DNA of 64,000 bases from Clostridia bacterium (GTDB lineage: Bacteria; Bacillota; Clostridia; UBA1212). Shown here piece after piece: positions 12,766 through 43,430 of this stretch; the stretch's first letter is position 1, and every line of letters starts with the position of its first letter. Location: the NCBI GenBank assembly GCA_017461545.1, contig JAFTXP010000021.1:3624-67623 (forward strand), read 5' to 3'. A program made the translations under genes and the position numbers. Below the pieces are notes generated by a model, which was given only the letters and a program-made list of their open reading frames with translations, ran no database searches and was not told where the DNA came from.

Positions 12766-12944
12766 AAATATTTTAGGGTGATAATAAAATTAAAATGTCA
12801 TTGTAATCCGAACTTCCATCTGTGGCTGACAGTTCCGGCTTTGTAAATTCGTATTGAGTTAAATTTAACGAAAACCCGTTGAGTTTTAATGTTAATAACA
12901 TAACAAAAAAATGATGAGTTTGTTATTTTTGTGATATTGCCATG

Positions 12945-12987
12945 TATCAACAGTGCTGCACATCCTCCGGGATGTGCAGTAGTCACT
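12945..12987 (-). other. Left junction site of the split murA (putative attL/attR-like site)
   Basis: Minus strand reads gtgactactgcacatccc-GG-aggatgtgcagcactgttgatac. Perfect 10-bp dyad arms ctgcacatcc/ggatgtgcag. Matches 43445-43467 at 21 of 23 positions in inverted orientation. Confidence 0.75.
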
Positions 12988-13307
12988 TCGCCGCAGCGGG
13001 CGAGCAGAGCGCCTAAAAATGTGATTGAGGAGCGGAGCGAGCCTGCAAGGTCCGGAAGAATAGTTGTTGAGGTTATATGAGTGCTGTCAACTGTTATCCG
13101 GTCATTGACAAATTCAGTTTTGCAACCGAGACTTTCAAGGATTAAAAGTGTGTTTCGGACATCTGTTAAATCAGGACAATTTGTTAATACGGTGGTGCCT
13201 CCGGTGATTATTGTTGCTGCTAAAATCGGCAGTACGGAATTTTTGGCTCCGTCAATATCGATTTCCCCGGAAATAGTGTGGCCGCCTTCAATTATGTATT
13301 GTGACAT
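12960..13307 (-). pseudogene. murA: 5' half (codons 1-116) of split UDP-N-acetylglucosamine 1-carboxyvinyltransferase; the ORF runs on out of homology to 12798
   Basis: MSQYIIEGGHTISGEIDIDGAKNSVLPILAA (Lys22), LRSS (Arg92) and HPGGC (Cys116), followed by 53 unrelated residues. Confidence 0.92.
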
Positions 13308-13410
13308 AGCGTGATTCCTGCCTTGAAGATTATGTTGAATTTATATTTACATAATATGCAAACCTGCAAAAGTGTGATAAAATGTAAAGAACTTAATGTT
13401 ATAGAAGACG

Positions 13411-16131
13411 GTGGGAATTTTGGAAAAACTTTTACTTGTTGACGGAAACAGCATAATGAACAGAGCCTTTTACGGCACCCAAAGCAGTTTTATGAAAAAT
13501 GCGGAGGGACTTTTTACCGGTGCACTTTTCGGCTTTATGAATATTCTTCTTAAGTATTTAGACGAAGAGAAGCCGGAGTATGTTGCTGTTGCGTTTGATG
13601 TAAAGGCTCCCACTTTCAGACATAAGGCTTATGACGGTTATAAAGCTACCAGAAAAGGTATGCCAAATGAGCTTGCCATGCAGATGCCTATTATAAAGCA
13701 GATTTTATGCGCTATGAATATTTCGTGCATTGAGATTCCCGGATACGAGGCCGATGATATCATAGGTACGTATTCGAGACTTGCTGCCGAAAAGGGTATC
13801 GAAAGCGTGATAGTGACAGGAGACAAAGATTCACTGCAGCTTGTAAACGAATTGACAATTGTAAAGCTTCCCGTCACAAAGCAGGGCACTACCACGACAG
13901 ATACTATAGATATAGAAGCTTTTAAAAACAAGTACGGCGGACTTATGCCTATCAGACTGATTGACCTTAAGGCTCTTATGGGAGACTCGTCCGATAATAT
14001 TCCCGGAGTTCCGGGCGTGGGAGAGAAAACCGCGGTCAGCTTGCTTGCGGAGTACGGCAGCCTTGATGGAGTATATGCACATGTAGAGAACATAAAAAAG
14101 CCTGCTCTTAAGAAAAAAATAGAAGAAAACAAAGAGTCTGCGTATATGAGCTATGATTTGGCGACTATCATGCTTACCGTGCCGGTTGAGAAAACGGTTG
14201 AGGAGCTTGCAAAGGGTGAGTGGGACAAACCGGCTCTGATTAAGCTTCTTACGATGCTTGAGTTTAAGAGCATAATAAAAAAGATGAAGCTCGAAGGCGT
14301 ACCGGTGTCTGATGATAGTGAAAAAGATGCCGACGAAAAAGGCGCGGTCGTTATGTCGCTGTTTAATGTTCTTGCAGGCGAGGGTATTGATATAAATAAC
14401 ATAGAAAACGAAGCTTCTGCGGCGCCGCTTCCGGCGGTTGTTCCTAAAAATACTGTTTTCGTCATGTTTTATGAGGATCTTAAGGAGTTAAAGGCTACGG
14501 TTGAAAAAAATCCTTCCGAGGTATATATCGAATGTGACTTCAGCGGGAAATATCCCGTTGAGATGAGAGTAAATTTTGACAATGACGACACGGTGTTTTC
14601 GGTTGCGTTTTCGATACCTGACACGGAGATCAATTTCATAGATATAATGAAGCCTGTTTTTGAGAATTCCGATATCAAAAAGATTGCTTTCGACAGTAAA
14701 CCGATTATTTTGTGGCTGATGACAAACGGCTGCGGATTTGAGGGACTTTGGTGTGATTTGTCCATTGCCGCATATCTTACGGATTCGACGAGAAAAAATG
14801 ATAATTTTTCTGATGTTTGCAGACTTTTTACGGGCGAAGAGCATGTCGGCATAGAGTATATGCCGCTTGCATCTGAGATGGCTGTCAGACGGCTTGAGAA
14901 GGACGGCATGACCGCTCTTTACAGAAATATAGAATTGCCTCTTGTTCCGATACTTGCATCTTTTGAGTATGAAGGTTTCAAAGTGTCCGAAAAGGTTTTG
15001 AAATCAGAAGGTGTGCTTCTCGAAAAGAGAATAGACGAACTCACTGCGCAGATATATGAGATAGCAGGACGCACGTTTAATATAAATTCGCCTAAACAGC
15101 TCGGAGAGGTATTGTTTGATGAGATGAAGCTTCCGGGCGGAAAGAAAACCAAAACCGGCTACAAGACAGGTCAGGATGTGCTGGAGGCAATCTCTGACGA
15201 GTCGCCGATTATTCCTCTTGTTCTGGAGTACAGACAGAATGTGAAGCTTAAATCCACGTATATTGACGGATTGATTGCGGTTATAGATAAAGAAACCGGA
15301 CTCGTTCATTCGAGTTTTAATCAGACTGTTACTGCGACAGGCCGACTGAGCAGTACGGAGCCGAATCTGCAGAATATTCCGGTAAGACATGAGCTCGGAA
15401 AAAAGATAAGATATGCGTTTGTGCCCAGAAAAGAAAATCATATACTTGTAGATGCCGACTATTCACAGATAGAGCTGAGGGTACTTGCTGAGATGTCCGG
15501 TGACTACTCGATGAAAAAAGCATTTAAAGACGGTGCCGACATACATGCGATCACCGCATCACAGGTGAATAATGTTCCGTTATCGGATGTAACGCCTGCC
15601 ATGCGAAGTGCGGCAAAGGCGGTAAATTTCGGCATTGTTTACGGCATAAGCGAATTCGGATTGGCAAAAGATATCGGAATATCAAGATTTGAAGCTAAAA
15701 AATATATTAACGGATATTTTGAAAAATATCCCGGCGTAAAAGCTTATATGGACAGCGCTGTTGTATTTGCAAAAGAGCACGGTTTTGCTGAGTCACTGCT
15801 CGGAAGAAGAAGATATCTGCCGGAGCTTACTTCTTCAAAGTACCCGATCAGGTCTTTCGGAGAACGTGTTGCAATGAATATGCCCATACAGGGCACAGCA
15901 GCGGATATCATGAAAATTGCTATGATAAAAGTTTACAGCGAGATTAAAAAAAGAGGTCTCAGGGCGAAACTTATATTGCAGGTTCACGACGAACTTCTGA
16001 TAGATGCACCGTTGGAGGAAAAAGACGAGGTCATGTCACTTCTGCGTGAGTGTATGGAAAATGCATTTGAAATGGAAGTTCCGCTGCCTGTTTCGGTTTC
16101 ATACGGAAGCAGCTGGGCTGAATGTAAGTAA
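13411..16131 (+). CDS. polA: DNA polymerase I
   Basis: Motifs LLVDGNS..NRAFY, EADDIIGT, GDSSDNIPGVPGVGEKTA, TATGRLSSTEPNLQNIP, DYSQIELR, KAVNFGIVYG and LQVHDEL. Confidence 0.97.
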   Translation: MGILEKLLLVDGNSIMNRAFYGTQSSFMKNAEGLFTGALFGFMNILLKYLDEEKPEYVAVAFDVKAPTFRHKAYDGYKATRKGMPNELAMQMPIIKQILCAMNISCIEIPGYEADDIIGTYSRLAAEKGIESVIVTGDKDSLQLVNELTIVKLPVTKQGTTTTDTIDIEAFKNKYGGLMPIRLIDLKALMGDSSDNIPGVPGVGEKTAVSLLAEYGSLDGVYAHVENIKKPALKKKIEENKESAYMSYDLATIMLTVPVEKTVEELAKGEWDKPALIKLLTMLEFKSIIKKMKLEGVPVSDDSEKDADEKGAVVMSLFNVLAGEGIDINNIENEASAAPLPAVVPKNTVFVMFYEDLKELKATVEKNPSEVYIECDFSGKYPVEMRVNFDNDDTVFSVAFSIPDTEINFIDIMKPVFENSDIKKIAFDSKPIILWLMTNGCGFEGLWCDLSIAAYLTDSTRKNDNFSDVCRLFTGEEHVGIEYMPLASEMAVRRLEKDGMTALYRNIELPLVPILASFEYEGFKVSEKVLKSEGVLLEKRIDELTAQIYEIAGRTFNINSPKQLGEVLFDEMKLPGGKKTKTGYKTGQDVLEAISDESPIIPLVLEYRQNVKLKSTYIDGLIAVIDKETGLVHSSFNQTVTATGRLSSTEPNLQNIPVRHELGKKIRYAFVPRKENHILVDADYSQIELRVLAEMSGDYSMKKAFKDGADIHAITASQVNNVPLSDVTPAMRSAAKAVNFGIVYGISEFGLAKDIGISRFEAKKYINGYFEKYPGVKAYMDSAVVFAKEHGFAESLLGRRRYLPELTSSKYPIRSFGERVAMNMPIQGTAADIMKIAMIKVYSEIKKRGLRAKLILQVHDELLIDAPLEEKDEVMSLLRECMENAFEMEVPLPVSVSYGSSWAECK

Positions 16132-16170
16132 AAGATTTTGAAAATATTTTGACTGTCGGAGGAAATATAT

Positions 16171-16767
16171 ATGAAAGTTTTGGGTGTCACAGGCGGTACG
16201 GGTACGGGCAAGTCTACTGTTTGTAAAATATTGCAGGATAACGGCGCAAAGATAATTGACGCGGACAAGATTGCAAACGCTCTGCAGAAAAAAGGTACGG
16301 TTGCATTTGATGAGATTATAGAATATTTCGGAGAGGGTATTCTGGACACGGATGGCGAGCTCAACCGCAGGATTTTGGGTGCTCTTGTGTTTAATGACAG
16401 GAATGCGCTTAATGCACTTAATGCCATAGTCCACAAACATGTCTCGATAGAGATTAAAAAGCGTGTCGAAGAGTATCGCAGAGAGGGCGCGGAACTTGTT
16501 GTTCTTGATGTTCCGATTCCGATAGAGGACGGATTTTTTGATACTGCCGAGCAGGTGTGGGCGGTTGTTGCAAACGATGATTTGAGAATTGAGAGGTTGC
16601 AGTTGAGGAACGGTCTTTCGGAAAATGAAGCGGTGGCAAGAATCGGTTCACAGCTTTCTAACAGCGAGTATTCGGAGCTTGCCGATGTTACTATCGATAA
16701 CGAAGGATCTTATGAAGAGCTTAAACAGCTTGTATTATACGAACTCAGAAGATTTAAAGAGTATTGA
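16171..16767 (+). CDS. coaE: Dephospho-CoA kinase
   Basis: GVTGGTGTGKSTV P-loop, IDADKIA and follows polA. Confidence 0.93.
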   Translation: MKVLGVTGGTGTGKSTVCKILQDNGAKIIDADKIANALQKKGTVAFDEIIEYFGEGILDTDGELNRRILGALVFNDRNALNALNAIVHKHVSIEIKKRVEEYRREGAELVVLDVPIPIEDGFFDTAEQVWAVVANDDLRIERLQLRNGLSENEAVARIGSQLSNSEYSELADVTIDNEGSYEELKQLVLYELRRFKEY

Positions 16768-16793
16768 TAAAATTAAAAATGATTAAGTGCGGT

Positions 16794-16831
16794 GGCGGCG
16801 AAACCCTTTTGCGATGAGAGGTTTCGCCGCC
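16794..16831 (+). terminator. GC-rich hairpin after coaE
   Basis: ggcggcgaaacc / ggtttcgccgcc. Confidence 0.6.
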
Positions 16832-16934
16832 GATTTTAATGCGGCTTGCCGCGTGTTTTATAAATTCTTCATTTGGGAATAATTAAATTGATTAAAAAGA
16901 TTTAATAAAACTGATTTGAAATGAGGGATAAAAT

Positions 16935-17369
16935 ATGTGGCTCGGAATATTGATAGCAGTTGCGTCGGGCGCGTTGATGAGTGTGCAGGGAGTGTTTAAT
17001 ACGGAGCTTACAAAGCAGTCGGGAATATGGATGGCTGCCGGATTTGTTCAGCTGAGCGGTTTTGCTCTGTGTCTTTTGATGTGGCTTTTTTCGGGTAGAC
17101 AGGGAAGCGTCGGAGAGCTGTTTTCTGTAAATAATAAGTATATGTTGCTGAGCGGTGTAATAGGAGCGTTAATAACTTACACCGTAATAAAAAGTATTGA
17201 ACTTTCGAGCCCTGCAAAGGCTATAATGGTTATAGTGACTGCACAGCTGCTGGTGGCTTATCTTATTGAATTGTTCGGACTGTTCGGTGCGGAAAAACAG
17301 CCGTTTGAATTTAAAAAACTGTGTGGAATAATACTTGCAATAATCGGTTTTGTGATATTTAAATTGTAA
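16935..17369 (+). CDS. DMT family (YdcZ-like) membrane transporter
   Basis: 144 aa, five hydrophobic segments, SGALMSVQGVFN and IELFGLFG. Confidence 0.8.
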   Translation: MWLGILIAVASGALMSVQGVFNTELTKQSGIWMAAGFVQLSGFALCLLMWLFSGRQGSVGELFSVNNKYMLLSGVIGALITYTVIKSIELSSPAKAIMVIVTAQLLVAYLIELFGLFGAEKQPFEFKKLCGIILAIIGFVIFKL

Positions 17370-17473
17370 AGCTCGGTATATACAAATCAGGAAAAATGTG
17401 TTAAAATGTCCAAGCGTGTCGAATGGTGACATGTAATAGATGAAAAATAATATACGTTCTTTTGGAGGAATAA

Positions 17474-18547
17474 ATGGATTTTACTACTTTCTGGGGGCAG
17501 ATGACGAGCAATCCTTTACTGTTTATGGCGATAGTTCTTACTCTCGGCGTTATTTTGGTAAACGGATGGACTGATGCACCAAATGCGATTGCTACTTGCG
17601 TTGTTACAAGATGTATGTCAGCACGTGCTGCTATCTTGATGTCTGCCGTGTTTAATTTTGCAGGTGTTTTCGTGATGAGCAGAATAAGCCCGGCTGTCGT
17701 AGATACAATTACTAAGATGGTTGATTTTGGCGGTAATGAAATTCCGGGTAGCCCTGAAAATGAAAAAGCGATAATTGCGCTGAGTGCGGCACTGTTTGCG
17801 ATTGTTGTGTGGGCGACTGCGGCATGGATGTTCGGAATTCCGACCAGTGAGAGTCATGCACTTATCGCAGGTCTTACAGGTGGAGCTCTTGCTGTACATA
17901 ACAGCTTAAGAGGTGTAAACGGCGGCGAATGGATAAAAGTTGTCTACGGTCTCGGTATTTCACTTATTCTCGGCTTTGTAGTAGGTTGGTGTGTTTGTAA
18001 GATTGTTGTGCTGTTATTTAAAAATGTTCACAGAAGAAAAACCGAAAAGTTTTTCCGCGGTGCTCAGATTGTCGGTGCAGCGTCTATGAGTTTTATGCAT
18101 GGTGCGCAGGATGGCCTTAAGTTTATGGGTGTAATATACCTATGCACATTGATTATAAGTGGTAAAAGTACTTCTGGTGCTGCTTTGGATATGCCGATTT
18201 GGATAGTTGCATTGTGTTCGATCATTATGGCACTCGGAACATCGCTTGGAGGAAAAAAGATAATCAAGTCCGTAGGTATGGATATGGTAAAACTCGAAAA
18301 GTACCAGGGATTTTCAGCAGATATTTCAGCCTCCATTTGCTTGCTCTTAAGCTCTGTGTTCGGTATTCCCGTATCGACAACACATGCAAAGACAACTGCT
18401 ATTATGGGTGTAGGCGCTGTTAAACGTATTTCTGCGATAAACTTTTCCGTCGTGAAGGAAATGCTTGTCGCTTGGATATTGACCTTCCCGGGATGCGGAT
18501 TGCTTGCATTTGTTTTTGCAAAAATATTTATGATGATATTTTTATAA
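17474..18547 (+). CDS. PiT family inorganic phosphate transporter
   Basis: PiT signatures NGWTDAPNAIAT, HGAQDG, PTSESHALI and PVSTTH. Confidence 0.92.
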   Translation: MDFTTFWGQMTSNPLLFMAIVLTLGVILVNGWTDAPNAIATCVVTRCMSARAAILMSAVFNFAGVFVMSRISPAVVDTITKMVDFGGNEIPGSPENEKAIIALSAALFAIVVWATAAWMFGIPTSESHALIAGLTGGALAVHNSLRGVNGGEWIKVVYGLGISLILGFVVGWCVCKIVVLLFKNVHRRKTEKFFRGAQIVGAASMSFMHGAQDGLKFMGVIYLCTLIISGKSTSGAALDMPIWIVALCSIIMALGTSLGGKKIIKSVGMDMVKLEKYQGFSADISASICLLLSSVFGIPVSTTHAKTTAIMGVGAVKRISAINFSVVKEMLVAWILTFPGCGLLAFVFAKIFMMIFL

Positions 18548-18599
18548 AAGTTGATTTAGTAAATTTGAAAATTTGTAGTACATAGAAAGGACAATAATT

Positions 18600-19220
18600 A
18601 TGTCAAAATCAGATCGTTTTTATTTTGAAAATCTTACAACAGCTGCAGACTATTGCTGCAAGGCTGCAGACTATTTAGTAGAGTGCATGGCTTCCTACAA
18701 CCCGGAAAACATAAAGGAAATGATTACAAAGATGCATGAGATAGAGCATGCTGCAGATAAACAGAAACATGCTATGTCCACAGCTCTTGCAAAAGCATTT
18801 GTAACTCCTATCGACAGAGAAGACCTTGCGGAGATGAGCATTAATATAGATGATGTTGCTGATAATATAGAAGAAGTTATACAGCGTTTTTATGTGGATG
18901 ATGTAAGAAAAGTCACTCCCGAGGCGATTGATTTCTCGAAAAAGATTGCGGATACGGCAAAGATCATGAAGTCTCTTGTGACAGAGCTTGAAAACTTCAA
19001 AAAACCTGCAAAGCTTCATGAGCTTATCATAGAACTCAGCAATGTGGAAGAAGAGTGCGATATTATTTATCTTGAATCTACAAGAAAGATCAGACTCGAA
19101 AACGATGATGTTCTCAAAATCATTGCATGGCGTAAGATATATGAGCTTATGGAAAACTGCGTTGACGCATGTGAGCATGTTGCAGATTCCGTCGGCACGA
19201 TTGTTATGAAGAATACTTGA
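18600..19220 (+). CDS. DUF47 (PhoU-like) phosphate transport accessory protein
   Basis: EHAAD, FVTPIDREDL, EEECD and D.CEHVAD; adjacent to the PiT gene. Confidence 0.9.
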   Translation: MSKSDRFYFENLTTAADYCCKAADYLVECMASYNPENIKEMITKMHEIEHAADKQKHAMSTALAKAFVTPIDREDLAEMSINIDDVADNIEEVIQRFYVDDVRKVTPEAIDFSKKIADTAKIMKSLVTELENFKKPAKLHELIIELSNVEEECDIIYLESTRKIRLENDDVLKIIAWRKIYELMENCVDACEHVADSVGTIVMKNT

Positions 19221-19320
19221 TTTTTGTATCAAAATTTATGATGCAGAGTTTTTAAAGCCGCAGCAAATGTTGCGGCTTTTGTGCGGTTATTCGACTTGTA
19301 ATTTACGCATAGGAGATTAA

Positions 19321-20529
19321 GTGAATATGAATAAGAAAAAAATAACTGATTGGATTATTGCAATTAGTCTTTTCGTTATATATTTGTCAATAAGTATCAT
19401 TTTCAGAGCTTGGGCATATTCCTGGATTATATGGGTAGCATATGCTATTTGCAGAGTTGTAGGAAAAAAACGCAAAATGAGTAAGACGAAAAAAATTGTT
19501 ATAACATCAATAACTGTTTTTTTGACATTTTCATTATTAATGCTGCCGTTTGGCGTATTTACATATCTGTATAATGAATATTTTGGAACCCGATATGAGA
19601 CTTATGAGCCATTATCCTTTAGCATGGAAGACTTTCCGGGGTTAAAAAGAGATAAATACGAATTTAGTTCTGATAAAGGTCAAACACTGGTTGGATATAA
19701 TTACTATCATGAAAATGAAAAAACAAAAGGAATTATTATAATTGCTCATGGATTTGGCGGCGGAGGACATAATTTGTATATGGACTGTGCAAATTATTTT
19801 GCGAAAAACGGATATTATGTATTCGCCTATGACGCAACAGGCAATGATGAGAGTGAAGGCGATTCGGTAAATGGTTTGCCTCAGGGAGTTATCGATTTGG
19901 ATTATGCAATTTCATTTGTTGAAAGTCAGGAAAAGTTTAAAGATCTTCCGATTATGTTATTTGGACATAGTTGGGGCGGATACTCTGTTACAAGCGTCTT
20001 ATCATATCATCCTGAGATTAAAGCGGTAGTGTCCATGTCAGGTTTTAATGAGTCTTCTGACTTAATTAAATCGCAAGGCGAAAGTATTGTAGGAAGTTTT
20101 ATCGAAATCGGAATGCCGTATATAGAAATATATGAAAAAATAAAATTTGGAGAATACGCGATAAATACAAGTATGGATGGATTTGAAAAATCTGACGCAG
20201 GTGTAATGATTATGCATAGCGAAGATGATGATACAGTTCAAAAAAAATATGGTTATGATATTTATTATGCAAAGTACAATAGTTCAGAAAGATTTAAATT
20301 TATTTCATATGAAGATAAAGGACATGATGAGATTTATTATTCCGACACGGCTACAGAATATATTAATCAATTCAATAAAGAATTTGAACTATATTTTGAG
20401 GAACATGAGTTTTCACCGGAAGCAAAAACTGATTATATAAATGAAAATTTAGACAGAACCGTATGGACGAATTTATTGGACGAAGAATTATTTAACAGTA
20501 TCATTGAATTTTACGATTCATACATATGA
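19321..20529 (+). CDS. Membrane-anchored alpha/beta hydrolase
   Basis: HGFGGG, GHSWGG nucleophile elbow, HSEDD and GHD; N-terminal TM segments; visibly AT-rich. Confidence 0.82.
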   Translation: MNMNKKKITDWIIAISLFVIYLSISIIFRAWAYSWIIWVAYAICRVVGKKRKMSKTKKIVITSITVFLTFSLLMLPFGVFTYLYNEYFGTRYETYEPLSFSMEDFPGLKRDKYEFSSDKGQTLVGYNYYHENEKTKGIIIIAHGFGGGGHNLYMDCANYFAKNGYYVFAYDATGNDESEGDSVNGLPQGVIDLDYAISFVESQEKFKDLPIMLFGHSWGGYSVTSVLSYHPEIKAVVSMSGFNESSDLIKSQGESIVGSFIEIGMPYIEIYEKIKFGEYAINTSMDGFEKSDAGVMIMHSEDDDTVQKKYGYDIYYAKYNSSERFKFISYEDKGHDEIYYSDTATEYINQFNKEFELYFEEHEFSPEAKTDYINENLDRTVWTNLLDEELFNSIIEFYDSYI

Positions 20530-20562
20530 AAAATTTCATTGAATAACATGAGATAAATAAAG

Positions 20563-20597
20563 AGCAACTTGCAACACAACGTAGTTTGCAAGTTGCT
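20563..20597. terminator. Bidirectional terminator between the hydrolase and the tRNAs
   Basis: agcaacttgcaa / ttgcaagttgct with flanking A and T runs. Confidence 0.7.
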
Positions 20598-20604
20598 TTT
20601 TTTA

Positions 20605-20677
20605 AGCCTCTAATCGGAATCGAACCGATGACCTCATCCTTACCATGGATGCGCTCTACCTACTGAGCTATGGAGGC
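20605..20677 (-). tRNA. tRNA-Thr(GGT)
   Basis: Cloverleaf GCCTCCATAGCTCAGTAGGTAGAGC-CATCC ATGGTAA GGATG-...GTTCGATT. One C.A mismatch in the acceptor stem; CCA not encoded. Confidence 0.92.
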
Positions 20678-20693
20678 ATATGATTTTGTAAAA

Positions 20694-20764
20694 AGCGGGT
20701 GAGGGGAATCGAACCCCCGTAATCGGCTTGGGAAGCCGGAATTCTGCCATTGAACTACACCCGC
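20694..20764 (-). tRNA. tRNA-Gly(CCC)
   Basis: GCGGGTGTAGTTCAATGGCAGAAT...CGGC TTCCCAA GCCG...GGGGGTTCGATTCCCCTCACCCGC. Confidence 0.93.
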
Positions 20765-20817
20765 AAATCCTGTTGTCAACGTGCATGAATAAGCGGTCAG
20801 TATCGAGCAACAGCGGT

Positions 20818-20846
20818 ATTTTATCACACATGTACTTGTGTGTCCA
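20818..20846 (-). promoter_or_regulatory. Sigma-A-type promoter for the tRNA-Gly/Thr pair
   Basis: Minus strand TGGACA-17 bp-TAAAAT with an extended -10 TG. Confidence 0.6.
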
Positions 20847-20850
20847 GTAT

Positions 20851-21039
20851 TTATTTTTTCATCTGCGGTGACAGGCTTTTTTCGAGTTTGTTTCTCGGAA
20901 GCATTATCATGTGACCGCAGTTGCAGCATTTTATTTTAAAATCTGCACCGACGCGTATGATTTCCCACTCAAAACTGCCGCAGGGGTGTTGCTTTTTTAA
21001 CAATATATGGGAACCGAGTCCGTAATTTTCGAGTGCCAT
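20851..21039 (-). CDS. DUF951 family protein
   Basis: LKKQHPCGS.EWEI.RVGADFKIKC..CGH.IMLPR. Confidence 0.88.
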   Translation of the reverse strand: MALENYGLGSHILLKKQHPCGSFEWEIIRVGADFKIKCCNCGHMIMLPRNKLEKSLSPQMKK

Positions 21040-21182
21040 AAATTATATCCTTTTGTGTCAATGAATTATATATTAAATATTATAATAATCTTTGTCGTTT
21101 TTTGCAATGTCAAAGTCTGCACACGGGTCATATGCGCGCAGAAAAATTTTTAAAAAATATGTAGAATTTTGTCGAAAAAGGT

Positions 21183-21211
21183 TTGACAAATATATATAAA
21201 ACCACTATACT
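21183..21211 (+). promoter_or_regulatory. Sigma-A promoter of carB, with a leader of about 270 nt
   Basis: TTGACA-17 bp-TATACT. Confidence 0.75.
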
Positions 21212-21257
21212 CTTATGTCGGTAAAAGTAATAACTACGAGAAAACGAGGTATCTGTT

Positions 21258-21386
21258 TTGAAATCTTATATGATAACAAAAAAACAGAATAAGGACAAGT
21301 TCTGCGCATATTCATCGATTCAATTATCTGAGCTTTGCATGGGGGATTTGTTTCCTGTTTTTTCTTATTTAGATATCACCGCTTGA
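21258..21386 (+). CDS. Possible 42-aa leader peptide in the carB 5' UTR
   Basis: GAGGT, then TTG 7 nt later; MKSYMITKKQNKDKFCAYSSIQLSELCMGDLFPVFSYLDITA*. The stop codon lies in the 5' arm of a terminator-like hairpin. Confidence 0.35.
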   Translation: MKSYMITKKQNKDKFCAYSSIQLSELCMGDLFPVFSYLDITA

Positions 21387-21426
21387 TATTCCTTTTTTTA
21401 AAAGGTTGTATCGGCGGTTTTTTTTA
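21378..21426 (+). terminator. Attenuator-like intrinsic terminator upstream of carB
   Basis: accgc..gata..cctttt / aaaagg..tatc..gcggt followed by a T run. Confidence 0.5.
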
Positions 21427-21489
21427 AGTTAAGAATATAACCGCAGTTTTCTTTATGCCAAACATATAAATTAAACGGAGGAAAAAAAT

Positions 21490-24400
21490 ATGCCACTTGA
21501 TAAATCTGTAAAAAAAGTTCTTGTAATCGGTTCAGGTCCGATTGTAATCGGACAGGCTGCCGAGTTTGACTATGCAGGTACTCAGTGTTGCCGCGCGATG
21601 CAGGAGGATGGAATCGAGATTGTTCTTATCAACTCAAATCCTGCTACCATAATGACTGACAGCGCTATGGCAGATAAGATATATATTGAACCGTTAAATC
21701 TTGTCACAATAAGAAGAATTATCGAACAGGAAAAGCCTGACAGTGTTCTTGCCGGATTCGGCGGACAGACAGGTCTTACAATGTGTATGCAGCTTGCAAA
21801 AGAAGGCTTCTTTGATGCGCACGGTGTAAGACTTTTGGGAGTTTCGCCTGAGACGATAGACAAGGCAGAGGACAGACAGATGTTCAAAGACACAATGGAG
21901 AGCATCGGTCAGCCCTGTATTCCGTCAAAGGTTGTTACAACAGTAGAGGATGCCGTTGAGTTTACAAAGACAATCGGTCTCCCTGTTATCATACGACCTG
22001 CATTCACACTCGGAGGAAGCGGCGGCGGTATCGCATATACCGACGAAGAACTTCACGAAATCTGTGAAAGAGGTCTTAAGCTTTCCCCTATCACACAGGT
22101 ACTCGTTGAAAAATGTATTTCAGGTTGGAAAGAAATTGAATTTGAGGTTATCCGCGACCATGTAGGAAATGCTATTACTGTTTGTTCTATGGAAAACCTT
22201 GACCCGGTAGGCGTTCACACGGGTGACAGTATCGTTGTAGCTCCTGCTGTTACACTTTCAAATGTTGAATTTTCTATGCTCAGAAATGCGGCTCTTGATA
22301 TCGTTACAGCTCTCGGAGTAGAGGGCGCTTGTAACTGCCAGTTTGCTCTGAAGCCCGATTCATTTGAGTATGCGGTTATCGAGGTTAACCCCCGTGTTTC
22401 AAGATCTTCTGCGCTTGCTTCGAAAGCTACCGGTTATCCGATTGCCAAGGTTGCCGCAAAAATTGCTCTCGGATACAACCTTGACGAAATTAAAAATGCC
22501 GTTACAGGTACAACATATGCAGCATTTGAACCTACGATAGACTATCTCTGTCTTAAGTTCCCGAAGTGGCCTTTTGACAAGTTTGTATATGCTGACAGAA
22601 GAATCGGTACACAGATGAAGGCTACCGGCGAGGTAATGTCTATCGCAGACAATTTTGAAGCGGCTCTTATTAAGGCTGTCCGCGGTGCTGAGATTTCAGT
22701 TGACACAATGAATATGCCTAAGATGAAAGAGTTTAGCGACGACGAGCTGGTTGCGCTTATTTCAAAAGTGACAGACGAAAGAATTTTCGCTGTATACGAG
22801 CTTATAAAGAGAGGTACACCCATTGAAAAGCTTTATGAACTTACAATGATTGATCCTTGGTTCCTCGCAAAATTCAGAAACCTTGCAGAGTATGAGAAGT
22901 CCATCGAAAACTGTGAGCTTTCATACGAGCAGTATTTGCAGGGTAAAAAGTACGGCTATACAAATAAGGCTCTCGAAAGACTTTCAGGACATAAATGCGA
23001 ACACAGACTTACACCTGTATACAAAATGGTTGACACTTGTGCATCCGAGTTCAGCGCAGGTACTCCTTATTTCTACGGAATATTTGACGACCCGAAATGC
23101 GGCTCGCACAATGACGCTCTTGACTTTGTAAACAAGGGCGAAAAGCAGAAAGTAATGGTTATCGGTTCCGGTCCTATCAGAATCGGACAGGGTATAGAGT
23201 TTGACTACGCAAGCGTACACTGCGTACATGCTCTCAGAAAAATGGGTTACGAGACGATTATCGTAAACAACAACCCCGAAACCGTTTCAACAGACTTTGA
23301 CACAGGTGACAGACTTTATTTTGAGCCTGTCTGCGAAGAGGATGTTTTAAATATTATTGATATAGAGAAGCCTATCGGTGTAGTTGTTGCATTCGGCGGT
23401 CAGACTGCTATTAAACTCAACAAGGTGCTTGAAGGCCACGGAGTAAAGCTTATTGGTTCGTCTGCTGACACTATCGATATGGCTGAGGACAGAGAGCGTT
23501 TTGAAAACCTTCTCGAAAGCCTCAATGTTCTCAGACCGAAGGGACACACGGTTCTTAATGTAGAGGATGCTCTCAAGGCTGCAAATGACCTCACATACCC
23601 CGTGCTTATGCGTCCGTCATACGTTTTGGGCGGTCAGAATATGATTATTGCTACATCAGACGATGAAATTGTGGAGTACATGCACATTATTCTCAGCTCG
23701 AACAAGGACAACCCGGTGCTTATTGACAAATACATCAGCGGCATCGAGTGTGAGCTTGATGCAATTTGCGACGGCGATGATATACTCATTCCCGGAATTA
23801 TGGAGCATGTAGAGCGTACAGGTATTCATTCGGGTGACAGTATTGCGGTATATCCCGCACAGCACATCGAAGATGAAATGCGCGCCGTAATCATTGATAC
23901 AACGGAAAGAATCTGCCGTGGACTTAACGCAGTAGGTCTTGTAAATATTCAGTATATCGTAAAAGGAAACGAGCTCTATGTAATTGAAGTTAACCCCCGT
24001 GCTTCGAGAACAGTTCCTTATATCAGTAAAGTAACGGGTGTTCCGATGTGTGACCTTGCAACAGCGACAAGCCTCGGAGCTAAACTGAAAGACCTCGGAT
24101 ACGGTACGGGTATTTACAAAGAATCGCCTTACGTTGCAATCAAAGTTCCTGTGTTCTCGTTTGAGAAGCTTACCGACGTTGATACACAGCTCGGACCTGA
24201 AATGAAATCTACTGGAGAAGTTCTCGGTATAGGAAATACTTTTGAGGAAGCTCTATACAAAGGTCTTATCTCTTCCGGTGCAACAATGACAAAGAAGGGC
24301 GGAGTATTTATCTCTGTCAGAAATCTTGACAAGTTTGAGATCGGAGCAATCGCGAAGAAATTCAGCTCACTCGGTATGGATATTTATTCAACAGCCGGCA

Positions 24401-25542
24401 CCGCAGAAGTTCTCCGCAAAATAGGTCTTACAGTTACTGATATCGGTAAAATTCATGAAGGCCACGGCACAAACGTAATTGACCTTCTTGAGAGCGGAAA
24501 GATAAGCTACGTAATTTCAACTTCGGCAAAGGGCAGAGATCCGAAGCGTGACAGCGTTAAAATCCGCAGAAAAGCAAGCTCCTTGGGAATTCCGTGTCTC
24601 ACTGCAATCGATACTGCAAATGCGCTGGCAGACAGCCTTATGAGCCGTTACTCACTTTCAAATATCGAGCTTGTAGACATAGCGCATATGAGAAATGAAA
24701 AGCTCACGCTTAAGTTTACTAAAATGCAGAGCAGTGCGAATGACTACATTTTTCTCAACTGTATGGAAAACACAATAGCATCACCTGAGTTTTTGTCGAT
24801 TTACCTTTCTGAAAGACGTACGGGCGTAGGCGGTGACGGTGTTGTTCTTATTGAAAATTCCGATGTTGCCGATGCAAAGATGCGTATGTTCAACCTCGAC
24901 GGAAGTGAAGGAAAGATGGCGGGTAACGCTATCAGATGTGTCGCAAAATATCTTTTCGACAATAAAATTGTTGAAAAAGACCTTATGACAATCGAAACTC
25001 TCAGCGGTGTTAAGAAATGTAAAGTATTCACGATGAACGGTATTGTATCAAAGGTAAAGGTTGATATGGACAAGGTAATCCTTGATGCGAAAAAGGTGCC
25101 CACTACGATAAATGCTGACACTGTTGTCAATTATCCCGTAAAAATCGGCGAAAACGACTACAACATAAACTGTATATCGGTCGGTAACCCGCATTGCGTA
25201 ACATTCGTTGACTATGTTGACGCAGTAGATGTAAAGAAAATCGGTCCCGACTTTGAGTTCTGCGAATTGTTCCCCGAAAGAATAAATGCGGAATTTGTTC
25301 AGATAATCGACAAACACACCCTCAAAATGCGCGCTTGGGAGCGCGGCTCCGGAGAGACTCTTGCATGCGGTACAGGTGCTTGTGCTGCTGTTGTTGCAGC
25401 TTGTCTTAACGGTTTCTGCGAAAAGGGCAGTGACGTTAAAGTAATAACTCTCGGCGGCGAGCTTGTTGTCAACTATAACGACAAGCGTGTAACTCTCACA
25501 GGTCCTGCCGAAAAGGTTTACGACGGCGAAGTTGTTATCTGA
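21490..25542 (+). CDS. carB: Carbamoyl-phosphate synthase large subunit fused to a C-terminal DapF-like (diaminopimelate epimerase fold) domain
   Basis: Two ATP-grasp halves (GSGPIVIGQAAEFDY, GSGPIRIGQGIEFDY) and an MGS domain. From about 24700: FTKMQSSANDY, FNLDGSEGKMAGN, SVGNPHCV and WERGSGETLACGTGAC. Confidence 0.95.
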   Translation: MPLDKSVKKVLVIGSGPIVIGQAAEFDYAGTQCCRAMQEDGIEIVLINSNPATIMTDSAMADKIYIEPLNLVTIRRIIEQEKPDSVLAGFGGQTGLTMCMQLAKEGFFDAHGVRLLGVSPETIDKAEDRQMFKDTMESIGQPCIPSKVVTTVEDAVEFTKTIGLPVIIRPAFTLGGSGGGIAYTDEELHEICERGLKLSPITQVLVEKCISGWKEIEFEVIRDHVGNAITVCSMENLDPVGVHTGDSIVVAPAVTLSNVEFSMLRNAALDIVTALGVEGACNCQFALKPDSFEYAVIEVNPRVSRSSALASKATGYPIAKVAAKIALGYNLDEIKNAVTGTTYAAFEPTIDYLCLKFPKWPFDKFVYADRRIGTQMKATGEVMSIADNFEAALIKAVRGAEISVDTMNMPKMKEFSDDELVALISKVTDERIFAVYELIKRGTPIEKLYELTMIDPWFLAKFRNLAEYEKSIENCELSYEQYLQGKKYGYTNKALERLSGHKCEHRLTPVYKMVDTCASEFSAGTPYFYGIFDDPKCGSHNDALDFVNKGEKQKVMVIGSGPIRIGQGIEFDYASVHCVHALRKMGYETIIVNNNPETVSTDFDTGDRLYFEPVCEEDVLNIIDIEKPIGVVVAFGGQTAIKLNKVLEGHGVKLIGSSADTIDMAEDRERFENLLESLNVLRPKGHTVLNVEDALKAANDLTYPVLMRPSYVLGGQNMIIATSDDEIVEYMHIILSSNKDNPVLIDKYISGIECELDAICDGDDILIPGIMEHVERTGIHSGDSIAVYPAQHIEDEMRAVIIDTTERICRGLNAVGLVNIQYIVKGNELYVIEVNPRASRTVPYISKVTGVPMCDLATATSLGAKLKDLGYGTGIYKESPYVAIKVPVFSFEKLTDVDTQLGPEMKSTGEVLGIGNTFEEALYKGLISSGATMTKKGGVFISVRNLDKFEIGAIAKKFSSLGMDIYSTAGTAEVLRKIGLTVTDIGKIHEGHGTNVIDLLESGKISYVISTSAKGRDPKRDSVKIRRKASSLGIPCLTAIDTANALADSLMSRYSLSNIELVDIAHMRNEKLTLKFTKMQSSANDYIFLNCMENTIASPEFLSIYLSERRTGVGGDGVVLIENSDVADAKMRMFNLDGSEGKMAGNAIRCVAKYLFDNKIVEKDLMTIETLSGVKKCKVFTMNGIVSKVKVDMDKVILDAKKVPTTINADTVVNYPVKIGENDYNINCISVGNPHCVTFVDYVDAVDVKKIGPDFEFCELFPERINAEFVQIIDKHTLKMRAWERGSGETLACGTGACAAVVAACLNGFCEKGSDVKVITLGGELVVNYNDKRVTLTGPAEKVYDGEVVI

Positions 25543-25570
25543 GTAATCTGATTTTGTTTATATATGTTGT

Positions 25571-25597
25571 TCCCCTGCAACCTCAGGCTGCAGGGGA
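25571..25597. terminator. Terminator after carB
   Basis: tcccctgca / tgcagggga followed by T residues. Confidence 0.7.
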
Positions 25598-25650
25598 TTT
25601 TTGCTGCAAGAAGCAAAGCCCTGTATTTTTAAATACGGGGCTCTTTTTCT

Positions 25651-26751
25651 TTATTTATCTTCTGTTTGTTCTTTGCGTTTTTGACGTCTGACACGGTTTA
25701 TATGCCTCTCAAAATCGCCGTTCGATATGAGTTCTGCCAAAACAAATTGAATGAAAGTTGGAACGGTGCACGAATAAAATCCCAGTTTTTCTTCAAATGT
25801 CGGAACAAGATGTTTGGGAAGTACCATATATCCGACTCGAAGTGCCGGAGAGATAGTTTTGGAAAAAGTATTCATGTATATAACATTATCTTTTGCGGAA
25901 TTTGTGAAAAGAGTTTCCTCAGGTTTTTTTGAAACAGAAAACTCGGATTCAAAATCATCCTCTATGATGTATCGATTGTCTTTACTTGCCCAACGGATAT
26001 ATTCATGACGTTTAGATGCTGAGGCGGATACACCGCTGGGAAAGCTTCGGTATGGTGATACGTGCAGAATATCAGCATTACTTGCCCACATTTCAGAACT
26101 TTCAATGCCGTCATTTCCGAGCTTAAGCATATCGTATTTAACATCTGAAGCACGGTATACCTGTTCAATTTTTTTGTATGAAGGAGACTCAATGGCATAT
26201 TTCTGATTTCTGCCCAACAGTTCAACAATCAGACCGTATAGATATTCCGAACCGGAGCCGATGATAATTTGCTCTGGTTCTGCGTAGATTCCGCGGCTTC
26301 TTTTGAGGTACAGGCTGATTTCGTCACGAAGCTCCAAACAACCGGTATTGGGTGATCTGTTAAGAATTGTATCTCCCAAATCGCTCATCACTTTACGCAT
26401 GGTCTTTGTCAGCACGGAAAACGGAAATTCTACGGATTTTGAACTTGCCTGATGATAGGGGACATGTATATGCCGACTGTTTTTGTCTGCCGAAGCGGCG
26501 AAACCGTCATTGGTGCGGAAGATGACAAAATATCCGCTTCGCTCTTTGGTCTTTATATATCCTTCGTCACAAAGAAGTGCGTAGGCGTGTTCGACTGTAA
26601 CGGTACTGATCCCCAGCTCATCTGCGATCGTCCTCTTGGAAGGCAGCTTACTGTTATAAGGATAGATATCTTCAACAATGTCGTCTCGTACTTGCCGATA
26701 TAGCTGCAGGTATGCCGGTGTATTATCTGTTTTATCAAGTAAGTATTTCAT
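25651..26751 (-). CDS. GntR/MocR-family PLP-responsive regulator (PdxR-like)
   Basis: N-terminal wHTH (LPSKRTIADELGISTVTVEHAY.L..EGY), then IIEDDFESEF and TFSKTISPALRVGY; divergent from pdxST. Confidence 0.88.
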   Translation of the reverse strand: MKYLLDKTDNTPAYLQLYRQVRDDIVEDIYPYNSKLPSKRTIADELGISTVTVEHAYALLCDEGYIKTKERSGYFVIFRTNDGFAASADKNSRHIHVPYHQASSKSVEFPFSVLTKTMRKVMSDLGDTILNRSPNTGCLELRDEISLYLKRSRGIYAEPEQIIIGSGSEYLYGLIVELLGRNQKYAIESPSYKKIEQVYRASDVKYDMLKLGNDGIESSEMWASNADILHVSPYRSFPSGVSASASKRHEYIRWASKDNRYIIEDDFESEFSVSKKPEETLFTNSAKDNVIYMNTFSKTISPALRVGYMVLPKHLVPTFEEKLGFYSCTVPTFIQFVLAELISNGDFERHINRVRRQKRKEQTEDK

Positions 26752-26843
26752 CTGGTAATATAAAATTCTCCTTTTTTGACTATTTCAATATAACCAAAAT
26801 TATTATATATTCTTCCTATACCTAATGCAAGGAGGAAAATAAA

Positions 26844-27719
26844 ATGTCAGAAAATCGTTATGAATTGAATAAGAATCTTGCTCAAATGCTTAAGGGCGGC
26901 GTTATTATGGATGTCACAACGCCGGAGCAGGCTAAAATTGCAGAAGCAGCGGGTGCGTGTGCCGTTATGGCGTTAGAACGTATTCCTGCGGACATTCGTG
27001 CAGCGGGAGGTGTTTCCCGTATGAGCGATCCCAAAATGATCAAAGGTATCCAAAATGCAGTTTCCATACCGGTTATGGCGAAATGCCGCATAGGTCACTT
27101 TGCTGAGGCTCAGATTTTGCAGGCGATCGAAATCGACTATATCGATGAGAGCGAAGTACTTTCTCCGGCGGATGACAAATACCATATCGACAAAACAAAG
27201 TTTGATGTACCGTTTGTATGCGGTGCCAAAGACCTTGGCGAAGCACTGCGCCGTATCAACGAAGGCGCCGCTATGATCCGTACTAAAGGCGAACCCGGCA
27301 CCGGAGATGTTGTGCAAGCTGTCCGTCACATGAGAATGATGCAGTCTGAAATCCGTCGAATCGGTTCCATGGCTAATGATGAACTGTTTGATACTGCAAA
27401 ACAGCTTCAAGTTCCATATGAGCTTGTTTTATATGTCCACGAACATAAAAAACTTCCTGTAGTCAACTTTGCCGCCGGCGGTGTAGCTACTCCTGCTGAT
27501 GCAGCTTTGATGATGCAGCTTGGTGCGGAAGGTGTTTTTGTCGGATCAGGTATCTTTAAATCCGGTAATCCCGAAAAGAGAGCGGCTGCTATCGTGAAAG
27601 CAGTCACCAACTATACTGATGCTAAGATGATTGCAGAGTTGTCCGAGGATTTGGGTGAGGCAATGGTCGGCATTAACGAGCAGGAAATTGAACTTCTGAT
27701 GGCAGAAAGAGGGAAATAA
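26844..27719 (+). CDS. pdxS: Pyridoxal 5'-phosphate synthase lyase subunit
   Basis: Motifs [30 protein letters not shown] and [13 protein letters not shown]. Confidence 0.97.
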
Positions 27720-27722
27720 GCT

Positions 27723-28289
27723 ATGAAAGTTGCTGTACTTGCCCTGCAAGGGGCTTTCGCTGAACATAAACAGATGCTTTCCCGGCTTGGTGTTCCTTCT
27801 TTTGAAATCAGGCAGAAACGAGATTTGGATAAGCCCTTTGACGGCCTCATTATTCCCGGAGGAGAAAGTACCGTACAGGGCAAGCTCATGCGGGAATTAG
27901 GCCTTTTTGAACCTTTGAGGGAACGCATTGCAGGCGGCCTGCCTGTGTTTGGAACATGTGCCGGATTGCTTTTGCTGGCGAAAAAAATTAAAAACGATGA
28001 CAGGGTACATTTTGCCGTAATGGATATAACGGCAGTGCGTAATGCCTATGGGCGTCAACTAGGCAGTTTTTATACCGAAGCGGAATTCAAAGGCATCGGA
28101 CAAATCCCCATGACTTTTATCCGTGCGCCTTATATCGAAGATGTATCCGGAGAGGCCGAAGTACTTGCAACTGTCAGCGGACATATTGTTGCTGCGCGTG
28201 AAGGTAATCAGCTTGTGACTGCTTTTCATCCGGAACTTAACGATGATCTTTCTGTTCATAAGTATTTCATTAATATGATTAAAAACTGA
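27723..28289 (+). CDS. pdxT: PLP synthase glutaminase subunit
   Basis: Motifs VLALQGAF, PGGEST, GTCAG, RNAYGRQ and FHPE. Confidence 0.97.
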   Translation: MKVAVLALQGAFAEHKQMLSRLGVPSFEIRQKRDLDKPFDGLIIPGGESTVQGKLMRELGLFEPLRERIAGGLPVFGTCAGLLLLAKKIKNDDRVHFAVMDITAVRNAYGRQLGSFYTEAEFKGIGQIPMTFIRAPYIEDVSGEAEVLATVSGHIVAAREGNQLVTAFHPELNDDLSVHKYFINMIKN

Positions 28290-28341
28290 TTGTCAGTATT
28301 ATTTAACAGCAGACATGCCGTCTGCTGTTGCCAATATTTAG

Positions 28342-28402
28342 GTAAATTCTCAAAGTAAACGCAACTCTAAATTGCACAGTTGCATTTACTTTGAGAATTT
28401 AC
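28342..28402. repeat. Long inverted repeat (25-bp arms, one mismatch) after pdxT
   Basis: gtaaattctcaaagtaaa-c-gcaact ... agttgc-a-tttactttgagaatttac. Confidence 0.8.
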
Positions 28403-28536
28403 TGCCATTATTTACCGTCAAAAATAACGCTATATTTTATTGACTTTTTTACTTATATAAAATATTATAAAAACGAATTTTATTGTTTTATGTCGATTGG
28501 AATTTTACACGTATTTGATGTGATATAGGATTAATT

Positions 28537-30723: not shown

Positions 30724-30742
30724 TTGTGAGGTTGATATTTAC

Positions 30743-32395: not shown

Positions 32396-32429
32396 AAAAT
32401 AATATAGTTTTGTTGAGGATGCGTTTAGT

Positions 32430-34373: not shown

Positions 34374-35323
34374 TAGATGAAATTCTCAGGCAAACTGAAG
34401 ATTTTGAATGCGGAAAAGCAAACGCAATAATAATCGGCGGCCCGACGGCATCCGGTAAAACTTCTCTTGCAATAGAAACAGCACTTCGTAAAAACGGTGA
34501 GATAGTTTCCTGTGATTCAATGCAGATTTATAAGCGCATGGATATCGGTACAGCAAAAGCGACTGCGGAAGAACAATCAAAAGTGCCTCATCACATGATA
34601 GATATAATTGAACCATGGATAAATTACAGTGTATTTGATTATAAAGAAGCAGCAGAAAAGTGCATTGCAGATATAATTTCACGTGGAAAGATTCCTGTAA
34701 TATGCGGCGGCACTGGTCTTTATATAAATTCTCTGATAGAGAACAGGCAGTACAATCCGGAAGAGGATCCGGCTGTGAGAGCAGAGCTTGAAACTATGGC
34801 GGATAACGGTGAGTACGATTTACTTTATGATATGCTTTGTAACTGTGACCCGGAAGCGGCGGAGATTATCCATAAGCATAATGTTAAACGAGTGATTCGC
34901 GCACTGGAACTCTATAGAATTACGGGTAAAACACAGTGTCAGAGAAATGAAGCGTCTCACTGTGTTCCGCCTTCTGTTGAATACAGGACATTTATAATCA
35001 ATATGGACCGTGAAAGGCTGTATGAAAGAATAGAGAAACGTGTTGATATTATGTTTGCGGAGGGTCTTTATAAAGAGACTGAATCCGTATATAATGAATG
35101 TAAAGAAGCTGTAGAGAAAGGTATTGCATCTTCCGGCAGCGTTGACGAATTGACATCTCTTGCCGCAATAGGCTACAGAGAGATGATCCGTCATATTTTC
35201 TTTGATGAGATGAGCTTAGAAGAAGTATGCGAAAAGATAAAAATCAATACGAGACATTATGCAAAACGGCAGATGACATGGTTCAGAAAGACGCCGGGAG
35301 CTGTTTTTATTGACGCAGAATAA
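34367..35323 (+). CDS. miaA: tRNA dimethylallyltransferase
   Basis: Motifs GGPTASGKT, SCDSMQIYK.MDIGTAK, GGTGLY and HYAKRQMTWF. Confidence 0.95.
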   Translation: MLIDEILRQTEDFECGKANAIIIGGPTASGKTSLAIETALRKNGEIVSCDSMQIYKRMDIGTAKATAEEQSKVPHHMIDIIEPWINYSVFDYKEAAEKCIADIISRGKIPVICGGTGLYINSLIENRQYNPEEDPAVRAELETMADNGEYDLLYDMLCNCDPEAAEIIHKHNVKRVIRALELYRITGKTQCQRNEASHCVPPSVEYRTFIINMDRERLYERIEKRVDIMFAEGLYKETESVYNECKEAVEKGIASSGSVDELTSLAAIGYREMIRHIFFDEMSLEEVCEKIKINTRHYAKRQMTWFRKTPGAVFIDAE

Positions 35324-35346
35324 GCTGAAGAAAGGTCGGAATCATT

Positions 35347-36888: not shown

Positions 36889-36951
36889 GCATAAAATGTA
36901 ATATAAGACATAAATATATACCGTCACAGTTTTACTGCAGGCGGTATTTTT

Positions 36952-37401: not shown

Positions 37402-37420
37402 TGTAAAAGCATAAAATAAT

Positions 37421-37456
37421 GCCCGTTTCACAGGTTCGCAACTTTGTGAAACGGGC
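37421..37456. terminator. Bidirectional hairpin between convergent genes
   Basis: gcccgtttcaca / tgtgaaacgggc. Confidence 0.7.
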
Positions 37457-37464
37457 TGTTTTTG

Positions 37465-38997: not shown

Positions 38998-39038
38998 GTG
39001 TGAAATTCTCCTTAAATATTAGAATAAAAATGAGTAGA

Positions 39039-39680: not shown

Positions 39681-39744
39681 AAAATACCTCCGTATATTTA
39701 AAAATTTTGTTTGGGTAAATTGTACCACAAATAAAAATAAATGC

Positions 39745-39756
39745 AAACTTTTGTTC
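39745..39756 (-). promoter_or_regulatory. Putative LexA (SOS) box
   Basis: Minus strand GAAC-AAAA-GTTT, about 65 nt upstream of lexA; fits the Firmicute GAAC-N4-GTTY consensus. Confidence 0.6.
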
Positions 39757-40136: not shown

Positions 40137-40170
40137 TCGATACGTAACAGATTATTATTTCTAAATATGC

Positions 40171-40319: not shown

Positions 40320-40322
40320 AAA

Positions 40323-43429: not shown

Positions 43430-43430
43430 A

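Follow-up and report, generated by a model that had tools for sequence, protein, structure and literature searches.

The 64-kb window analysed here (the whole stretch of DNA, to which all coordinates without a contig prefix refer) carries a murA gene in two pieces, which lie on opposite strands at the two ends of a 30.5-kb segment. The question raised by this locus is whether the two junctions are recombination sites at which the gene can be rebuilt and, if so, by which enzyme and in which cell. We followed the junctions through the window, its own assembly (a MAG of 1.37 Mb, 69% complete; G000) and the genomes of relatives. The features discussed below are listed in Table 1.

Table 1. Coordinates of the split gene, its junctions and associated features
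Feature	Coordinates	Strand	Description
murA N-terminal part	12967..13307	-	Ends ...EVTTAHPG (HPGGC with the junction); the assembled frame continues into non-coding DNA to 12798
murA C-terminal part	43456..44409	+	From the catalytic-loop Gly-Gly-Cys to the stop codon
attL-like hybrid site	12941..12991	-	attB-type arm 12969-12991 in the murA N-half coding sequence; GG 12968/12967; non-coding attP-type arm 12941-12966
attR-like hybrid site	43430..43480	+	Non-coding attP-type arm 43430-43455; GG 43456-43457; attB-type arm 43458-43480 in the murA C-half coding sequence
Segment predicted to be inverted	12969..43455	.	30.5 kb; murA N-half, polA, coaE, PHO4/PhoU pair, carB-dapF, pdxS/T, dockerin and cadherin-like proteins, mutL, miaA, lexA, UvrD-like helicase, PRK06851 ATPase
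Sigma-K-type promoter-like motif	13351..13376	-	CACAC-N13-CATATTAT, upstream of the murA N-half
Sigma-factor gene pair near C-half, G015	C3:334448-335557		
Sigma-factor gene pair near C-half, G017	C1:112539-113605		
Sigma-factor gene pair near C-half, G042	C8:162026-163209		
Sigma-factor gene pair near C-half, G043	C3:628622-629954		

The two halves of murA and their distribution

A murA paralogue is split within the loop that bears its catalytic cysteine, and in several families both halves are conserved as open frames. In the window, the plus-strand open reading frame at the right junction starts with ...AHPGGCTIGARP and codes for the rest of MurA. The reverse complement of 13307..12967 followed by 43458..44409 gives an uninterrupted, in-frame MurA of 430 residues, with a score of 402.8 bits on TIGR01072, the murA equivalog of NCBIfam (cut-off 392.7). 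We take the loop at the break to be a surface loop of MurA and its catalytic cysteine to be the target of fosfomycin. A second, intact murA-type gene is present on contig C16 of the same genome. The same split occurs in eight of 41 relatives (40 searched with the joined protein) from four families, with the break at residues 110–118. N-halves comprise residues 1 to ~117 and C-halves ~110 to the end, and the halves are free of stops except for single stops in a few N-half matches. Twenty-five further genomes that bear the recombinase described below were tested: all have an N-half ending at about residue 117 and 24 also have a separate C-half, which was not detectable in the remaining one (G049). 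In total, 33 genomes from independent assemblies, cultured strains among them, have the split with its frames open. That the gene is mis-assembled, or is dead after a chance inversion at microhomologous palindromes or terminator hairpins, is hardly credible against this distribution, even for a window taken from a 69%-complete MAG. Recurrence in independent assemblies excludes mis-assembly, and the left and right sites have only 13 identical bases in common, too few for an assembler to mis-orient the segment.

A different reading is that the gene was split by an ancient, fixed rearrangement and is never rejoined, the two polypeptides assembling into MurA or having other roles and the dyads at the junctions being relics. 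Both halves are under purifying selection, the break falls in the surface loop mentioned above, and the C-half in the window has an in-frame GTG with a Shine-Dalgarno-like AGGA upstream. Among 20 genomes, however, the window genome alone has this arrangement, and 15 lack any in-frame start codon within 13 codons upstream of the C-half. The read-through tails of the N-halves are likewise unconserved between genomes, and the cysteine is lost in five of the 20. We consider a two-piece enzyme unlikely. A joined close relative was absent from a collection of 5.8 billion proteins, in which every match of at least 63% identity is a C-half alone and the nearest full-length proteins are at most 48% identical to the joined MurA; this absence is compatible also with halves that never recombine.

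Where both halves lie on a single contig, they are direct in nine genomes (2.2 to 90 kb apart) and inverted in four, namely the window, G001, G015 and G017, with a distance of 30–38 kb between the opposite-strand halves in the last three. G001, an independent MAG of the same genus, is colinear with the window gene for gene. The junction neighbours in G015 are those of the window (spoVE–site–N-half facing polA, and helicase–ATPase–site–C-half); the short arc of the window runs from the N-half to the ATPase gene and that of G015 is the complementary one, from the C-half to the dcw cluster. Direct halves are ~11 kb apart in Ruminiclostridium, 90 kb in A. alkalicellulosi and 2.2 kb in a Clostridiales MAG. 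Cultured strains with direct halves are R. hungatei DSM 14427, R. cellobioparum subsp. termitidis CT1112, R. sufflavum DSM 19573 and A. alkalicellulosi DSM 17461. From ORF translations, we take the Ruminiclostridium interval to encode a response regulator, a sigma/anti-sigma pair, polA, coaE, gatD and murT; the 2.2-kb interval presumably holds murT- and gatD-like genes only, with a murG-like sequence upstream and an FtsQ-like gene downstream. The coexistence of direct and inverted arrangements indicates that the sites are retained while the DNA between them changes. In most genomes, an adjacent pair of sigma-factor genes, 47–49% and 38–39% identical to B. subtilis SigK, is located 5–9 kb from the C-half (examples in Table 1). 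On these identities the pair is probably sigE and sigG, which would place the split murA at the end of a dcw/sporulation-sigma cluster, a linkage that is broken in the window.

A test of the MurA tree, in which some branches are long, rejected a single origin of the split as one clade (AU p = 1.4e-4); losses, re-fixations or several insertions are therefore part of its history. Split MurAs from Oscillospiraceae lineages have very long branches (1.24 substitutions per site for G000/G001), with intact MurAs nested between them. This may reflect faster evolution of the split copy or use of the attB site in more than one paralogue.

No recombinase or phage gene was found among the genes of 12969–43455. 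To the left of the segment lies part of the dcw cluster (SpoVD-like PBP, murE, murF, mraY and ftsW/spoVE). The left flank, the segment and the right flank have GC skews of +0.147, +0.140 and +0.107, respectively, and 83–87% of coding bases are on the plus strand in all three. This uniformity across the junctions indicates that the split orientation is the long-term replicated state.

Architecture of the junction sites

On the minus strand, in the murA sense, the left site reads GAAGTGACTACTGCACATCCC-GG-AGGATGTGCAGCACTGTTGATACATGG with GG at 12968/12967; the right site, on the plus strand, reads ATGTGACAGCAGGGGCTGCACATCCC-GG-CGGATGTACAATAGGCGCAAGG with GG at 43456/43457. Both are present as quoted in an earlier note on this DNA, which had described them as serine-recombinase sites, and the arms behave as it stated. 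All four share TGYACATCC, which occurs exactly four times in the window, always flanking one of the two GG centres (expectation ~0.75; one of 100 shuffles reaches four). Exchange at GG would yield a murA-internal site that is an imperfect palindrome (11 of 14 identical) and a reciprocal site with perfect inner arms of 11 bp. Besides the left and right sites, their assembly contains no close match to the core dyad, the other two matches having four mismatches, and an exact scan of JGI metagenome contigs gave two matches, both in unrelated high-GC coding sequence. As outer motifs, the coding arms have GTGACTAC (left site) and GCGCCTAT (right site), both at -18..-11, and the non-coding arms have GTATCAAC at -23..-16 (left site) and GTGACAGC at -24..-17 (right site). 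The two sites are inverted with respect to each other in the window, not in the direct orientation of skin-type sites.

The four arms were aligned from 20 genomes, each written 5' to the centre; a convention for aligning half-sites of large serine recombinases (LSRs) has been described (PMC12286644). The consensus is AAGTgACTATaAGcTATCCG for the coding arm on the N side, GGGCCTATTTCaCAtCCa for the coding arm on the C side, tgtGcCAATaga.TaACaCAcCCa for the non-coding arm of the C-junction and atGTg.CaATAgaGTtACaCAcCCA for that of the N-junction. The GG centre is the sole dinucleotide common to both junctions in all 20 genomes, G023 being mismatched on both sides of it. In serine-integrase half-sites, a displaced outer (zinc-ribbon-domain) motif, ~5 bp further out, tells attP from attB. 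Here, the outer motif G[TG]G[AC]C[TA]AT is found at -18..-11 in the attB-type (coding) arms and at -23..-16 in the attP-type (non-coding) arms. Comparison of the arm profiles accordingly gives the best match for the outer motif at +5 (0.434, all other offsets remaining at or below 0.306), whereas the inner motif, comprising the inner ten positions, is in register (peak of 0.543 at offset 0). The outward shift of 5–6 bp that the earlier note had seen in the window is thus family-wide, and the non-coding arms, whose lack of conservation would have told against its reading, are conserved in the relatives that bear the split. Furthermore, the attP-type arms co-vary, with an identity of 0.61 within a genome and 0.49 across genomes (permutation p<1e-4); identity falls to 0.345 in DNA beyond -27. 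As aligned, the junctions have the half-site architecture of LSR sites around a non-palindromic GG, which supports the view that the window junctions are attL/attR-like hybrids, the joined murA site attB-like and the reciprocal site attP-like. Relic sites would not keep their attP-type arms co-varying within a genome, and conserved non-coding arms with LSR-specific geometry speak against two polypeptides that are never rejoined.

The dyad can also fold as an RNA hairpin (-25.8 kcal/mol, z = -2.8), which would suit a chance inversion between terminators. However, a terminator-like T-tract is predicted at neither site, and the outer motifs, being offset by 5 bp, could not pair in a hairpin. A terminator of the ATPase gene was considered separately and rejected: the attP-type arm travels with the junction and adjoins different genes, the ATPase gene here and murT in Ruminiclostridium. 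A terminator reading of the dyads is unlikely.

An unlinked large serine recombinase

The search of the genome for LSRs that the earlier note had called for returned two, of which one (C27:55924-57612) belongs to an orthologue group that co-occurs with the split. This protein carries three Pfam domains (Resolvase, Recombinase and zinc-ribbon). Members of the group have 453–575 residues, are 40–56% identical to each other and share four invariant cysteines and an invariant R19-x-S21-R22-D23 motif at the expected place of the catalytic serine. A profile of the group scores 698–754 bits in exactly the eight split genomes and at most 289 in the other 33; the profile was built from those eight sequences, so that the informative part is the lack of orthologues in the other genomes. 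Scanning one genome for each prokaryotic species added 46 LSR loci, among whose carriers are Ruminiclostridium cellobioparum subsp. termitidis, R. hungatei, R. sufflavum, Acetivibrio alkalicellulosi and Herbivorax sp. The LSR orthologue and the murA split co-occur without exception (eight of eight split relatives, none of the 33 others and all 25 further carriers). Such perfect co-occurrence with one LSR group also argues against the ancient, never-rejoined rearrangement, which together with the evidence from start codons and arms makes that reading quite improbable. The second LSR of the window genome (C19, 573 aa) was set aside as a generic paralogue (274 bits).

The LSR gene never adjoins murA: it is on another contig or, in G047 and G043, 86–150 kb away on the same contig. 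Its neighbourhood is a conserved chromosomal context. From sequence we take the upstream neighbour to be 5-formyltetrahydrofolate cyclo-ligase and a gene ~1.3 kb downstream in eight genomes to be spoIVA; in Oscillospiraceae the LSR gene is located between what we read as TmcAL-like and tmk genes. A role as the recombinase of a skin element in sigK was ruled out, as sigK is intact in the window genome and in G001, and G001 (95% complete) has this LSR only. sigK is also intact in G015, G017, G012, G027 and G043. In R. hungatei (G042, C1:10665-13472), sigK is itself split into residues 5–116 and 98–227, ~2 kb apart and direct, so that two separate split-gene systems would coexist in this species.

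In most loci, a small co-directional ORF ends ~20–115 nt before the YVRxSRD motif of the LSR (C27 ~55.6–55.8 kb in the window genome; upstream of ~6000 in loci L055–L100). The ORF is variable: in most loci it has 30–45 aa, in which a ...EEVLIKIVKLFLD-like helix comes after a basic N-terminus, and in G000/G001 it has 68–74 aa and is Cys-rich. We regard it as a candidate directionality factor or leader peptide. A divergently oriented neighbour of 103 aa was rejected as a directionality factor, since it occurs in only 13 of the 46 loci. Inspection by eye revealed no convincing sporulation-type promoter upstream of the LSR gene.

Proposed inversion and relation to known systems

By the marker used, the window genome and its split relatives are those of endospore formers: SpoIVA is encoded in the window genome and in all eight split relatives, and none of the 16 SpoIVA-negative relatives has the split. 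A sigma-K-type promoter-like motif precedes the N-half within the invertible segment and would thus move with it. The strict form, [AC]ACA[CT]-N12-15-[GCT]CATA-N3-T, is found upstream of the N-half in ten of 19 genomes, with a background of 0.0056 per 200 nt, and a looser form, AC-N15-17-CATAnnnT, in 15 of 19. Sigma-K promoters of C. difficile have AC at -35 and CATATAAT at -10 (PMC3789822). By its match to this C. difficile consensus, the N-half promoter may be of sigma-K type, hence with expression in the mother cell. The motif is absent upstream of the Ruminiclostridium N-half. In its place, about 100 nt before the N-half, the Ruminiclostridium loci (L101, L102, L103 and L107) share the conserved leader AAGGAGGGAAAGTCGTGCAG...TAATGTCCCAGCGTGACGGAGGTG, which could be a short upstream ORF or an RNA element.

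We consider it likely that the two junctions are attL/attR-like sites of the dedicated, unlinked chromosomal LSR, which would rebuild murA by inversion, probably in the mother cell late in sporulation. LSR dimers would bind both sites, cut at GG/CC, rotate and religate; a directionality factor would probably also be needed, since the substrates are attL and attR. Because the sites are inverted, the segment 12969–43455 would be flipped, not excised. One product would be an intact murA of 430 aa under the promoter travelling with the N-half (predicted junction ...GAAGTGACTACTGCACATCCCGGCGGATGTACAATAGGCGCAAGG...), the other a near-perfect, attP-like palindrome between the MFS-transporter and ATPase genes (predicted junction ...ATGTGACAGCAGGGGCTGCACATCCCGGAGGATGTGCAGCACTGTTGATACAT...). 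The timing suggested by these features is late sporulation in the terminally differentiated mother cell, and the purpose might, at a guess, be the supply of peptidoglycan precursors for the spore cortex. In relatives with direct sites, the same reaction would remove polA and coaE, which only a cell that has ceased to divide should tolerate.

The inversion itself loses no DNA, and LSRs need a directionality factor for attL x attR but not for attP x attB (PMC12286644). The system could therefore be a reversible vegetative switch, in which inversion by the LSR with a partner switches the third murA on and inversion by the LSR alone restores the split, giving heritable phase variation in place of a terminal event. 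We regard this as improbable. In homologous direct systems, polA and coaE would be lost by excision, and dividing cells should not survive this loss; every split relative is SpoIVA-positive; the putative promoter on the N-half is of sigma-K type; GC skew places the segment in the split orientation for essentially all of its replicating time; and no joined form occurs in any assembly represented in the 5.8-billion-protein collection. It is also doubtful, though slightly less so, that the inverted form is a natural two-way chromosomal LSR latch whose joined state could be used, inherited and undone outside the terminal mother cell. As nothing is lost on flipping, the third murA would be turned on by the LSR and its partner and returned to the split state by the LSR alone. 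If so, the system would have ceased to be a mobile element and become a domesticated recombination module, its sites and LSR having outlived the turnover of the DNA between them.

The proposed rebuilding of murA in the mother cell most closely resembles the skin element in sigK, which is excised by SpoIVCA in Bacillus subtilis and by CD1231 with the directionality factor CD1234 in Clostridioides difficile (PMC5025042). In skin, as proposed for murA, an LSR acts on attL/attR-type sites within coding sequence of an endospore former to rebuild a gene, and in C. difficile a small mother-cell-specific factor sets the direction. Skin, however, has direct sites, is an excised prophage-like element and carries its recombinase gene at its edge. 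The murA system differs in having inverted sites with core chromosome (polA, mutL, lexA) between them, an unlinked LSR in a conserved neighbourhood and an intact sigK. Further intervening elements of sporulation are SPbeta in spsM (SprA/SprB; PMC4191935, PMC5499854), gin in gerE (PMC5595907) and yin in yabG (PMC10747680). All three likewise reconstitute a gene in sporulation, SPbeta by means of a serine recombinase, and gin shows that an intervening element need not be a prophage. All three are nevertheless excisions, of elements that, as far as these reports show, have their own recombinase, and none targets murA. We found no published report of a split murA; the sporulation elements found in the literature sit in sigK, spoVFB, spoVR, spsM, gerE and yabG, and all are excisions.

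Inversions do contribute to gene rebuilding in heterocysts of Calothrix sp. NIES-4101, in which nifBHDK is restored in steps that include inversions between inverted repeats (PMC11249958). As proposed here for murA, a developmental gene is thereby rebuilt in a terminally differentiated cell. The Calothrix system differs in belonging to a cyanobacterium, in having recombinase genes beside their own repeats and a nine-step cascade, and in being unrelated to sporulation or murA. Engineered inversion switches place attP and attB in inverted orientation and use an integrase with or without its RDF (assays in PMC12286644). Their geometry is the one seen here: DNA between inverted att sites is flipped by an LSR, with attL x attR dependent on a directionality factor. 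These switches are synthetic and a few hundred bases long; the murA system would be a natural, chromosomal version of 30.5 kb. It is also unlike invertons of the Hin/Gin type or those of tyrosine recombinases in the length of the segment, the lack of an adjacent recombinase and the asymmetric attL/attR-type hybrids in place of plain repeats.

Gene reconstitution in sporulation is known only as the excision of mobile-element-like inserts that carry their own recombinase. If the proposed inversion is correct, it would extend this process to a core peptidoglycan gene, cut at the loop of its catalytic (fosfomycin-target) cysteine, with essential housekeeping chromosome between the sites, a 30-kb inversion in place of a deletion and an unlinked, vertically inherited host gene as the recombinase. 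The direct and inverted versions in cultured and uncultured Clostridia would offer a natural comparison of excision and inversion within one recombinase family, and the LSR and its sites a new, well-defined LSR/att pair in which the logic of the half-sites can already be seen. As culturable Ruminiclostridium and Acetivibrio are among the carriers, the claim is directly testable.

Some further features of the window are recorded here. Within the segment, a CarB large subunit with a C-terminal DAP-epimerase domain (PF01678) is encoded in one frame of 1350 aa (21490–25542), and the same fusion is present in G001 with 95% identity. The dockerin/SH3 protein gene is closely preceded by a 25-nt inverted repeat (28342–28402; 96% complementary, 11-nt spacer). 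A 29-nt unit (AAAATTTTAAAAAGAAGTGTGAAAAATAT) recurs several times at 6872–7114, in perfect inverted repeats located just after ftsW/spoVE, the position at which murG and murA are expected in the canonical dcw cluster.
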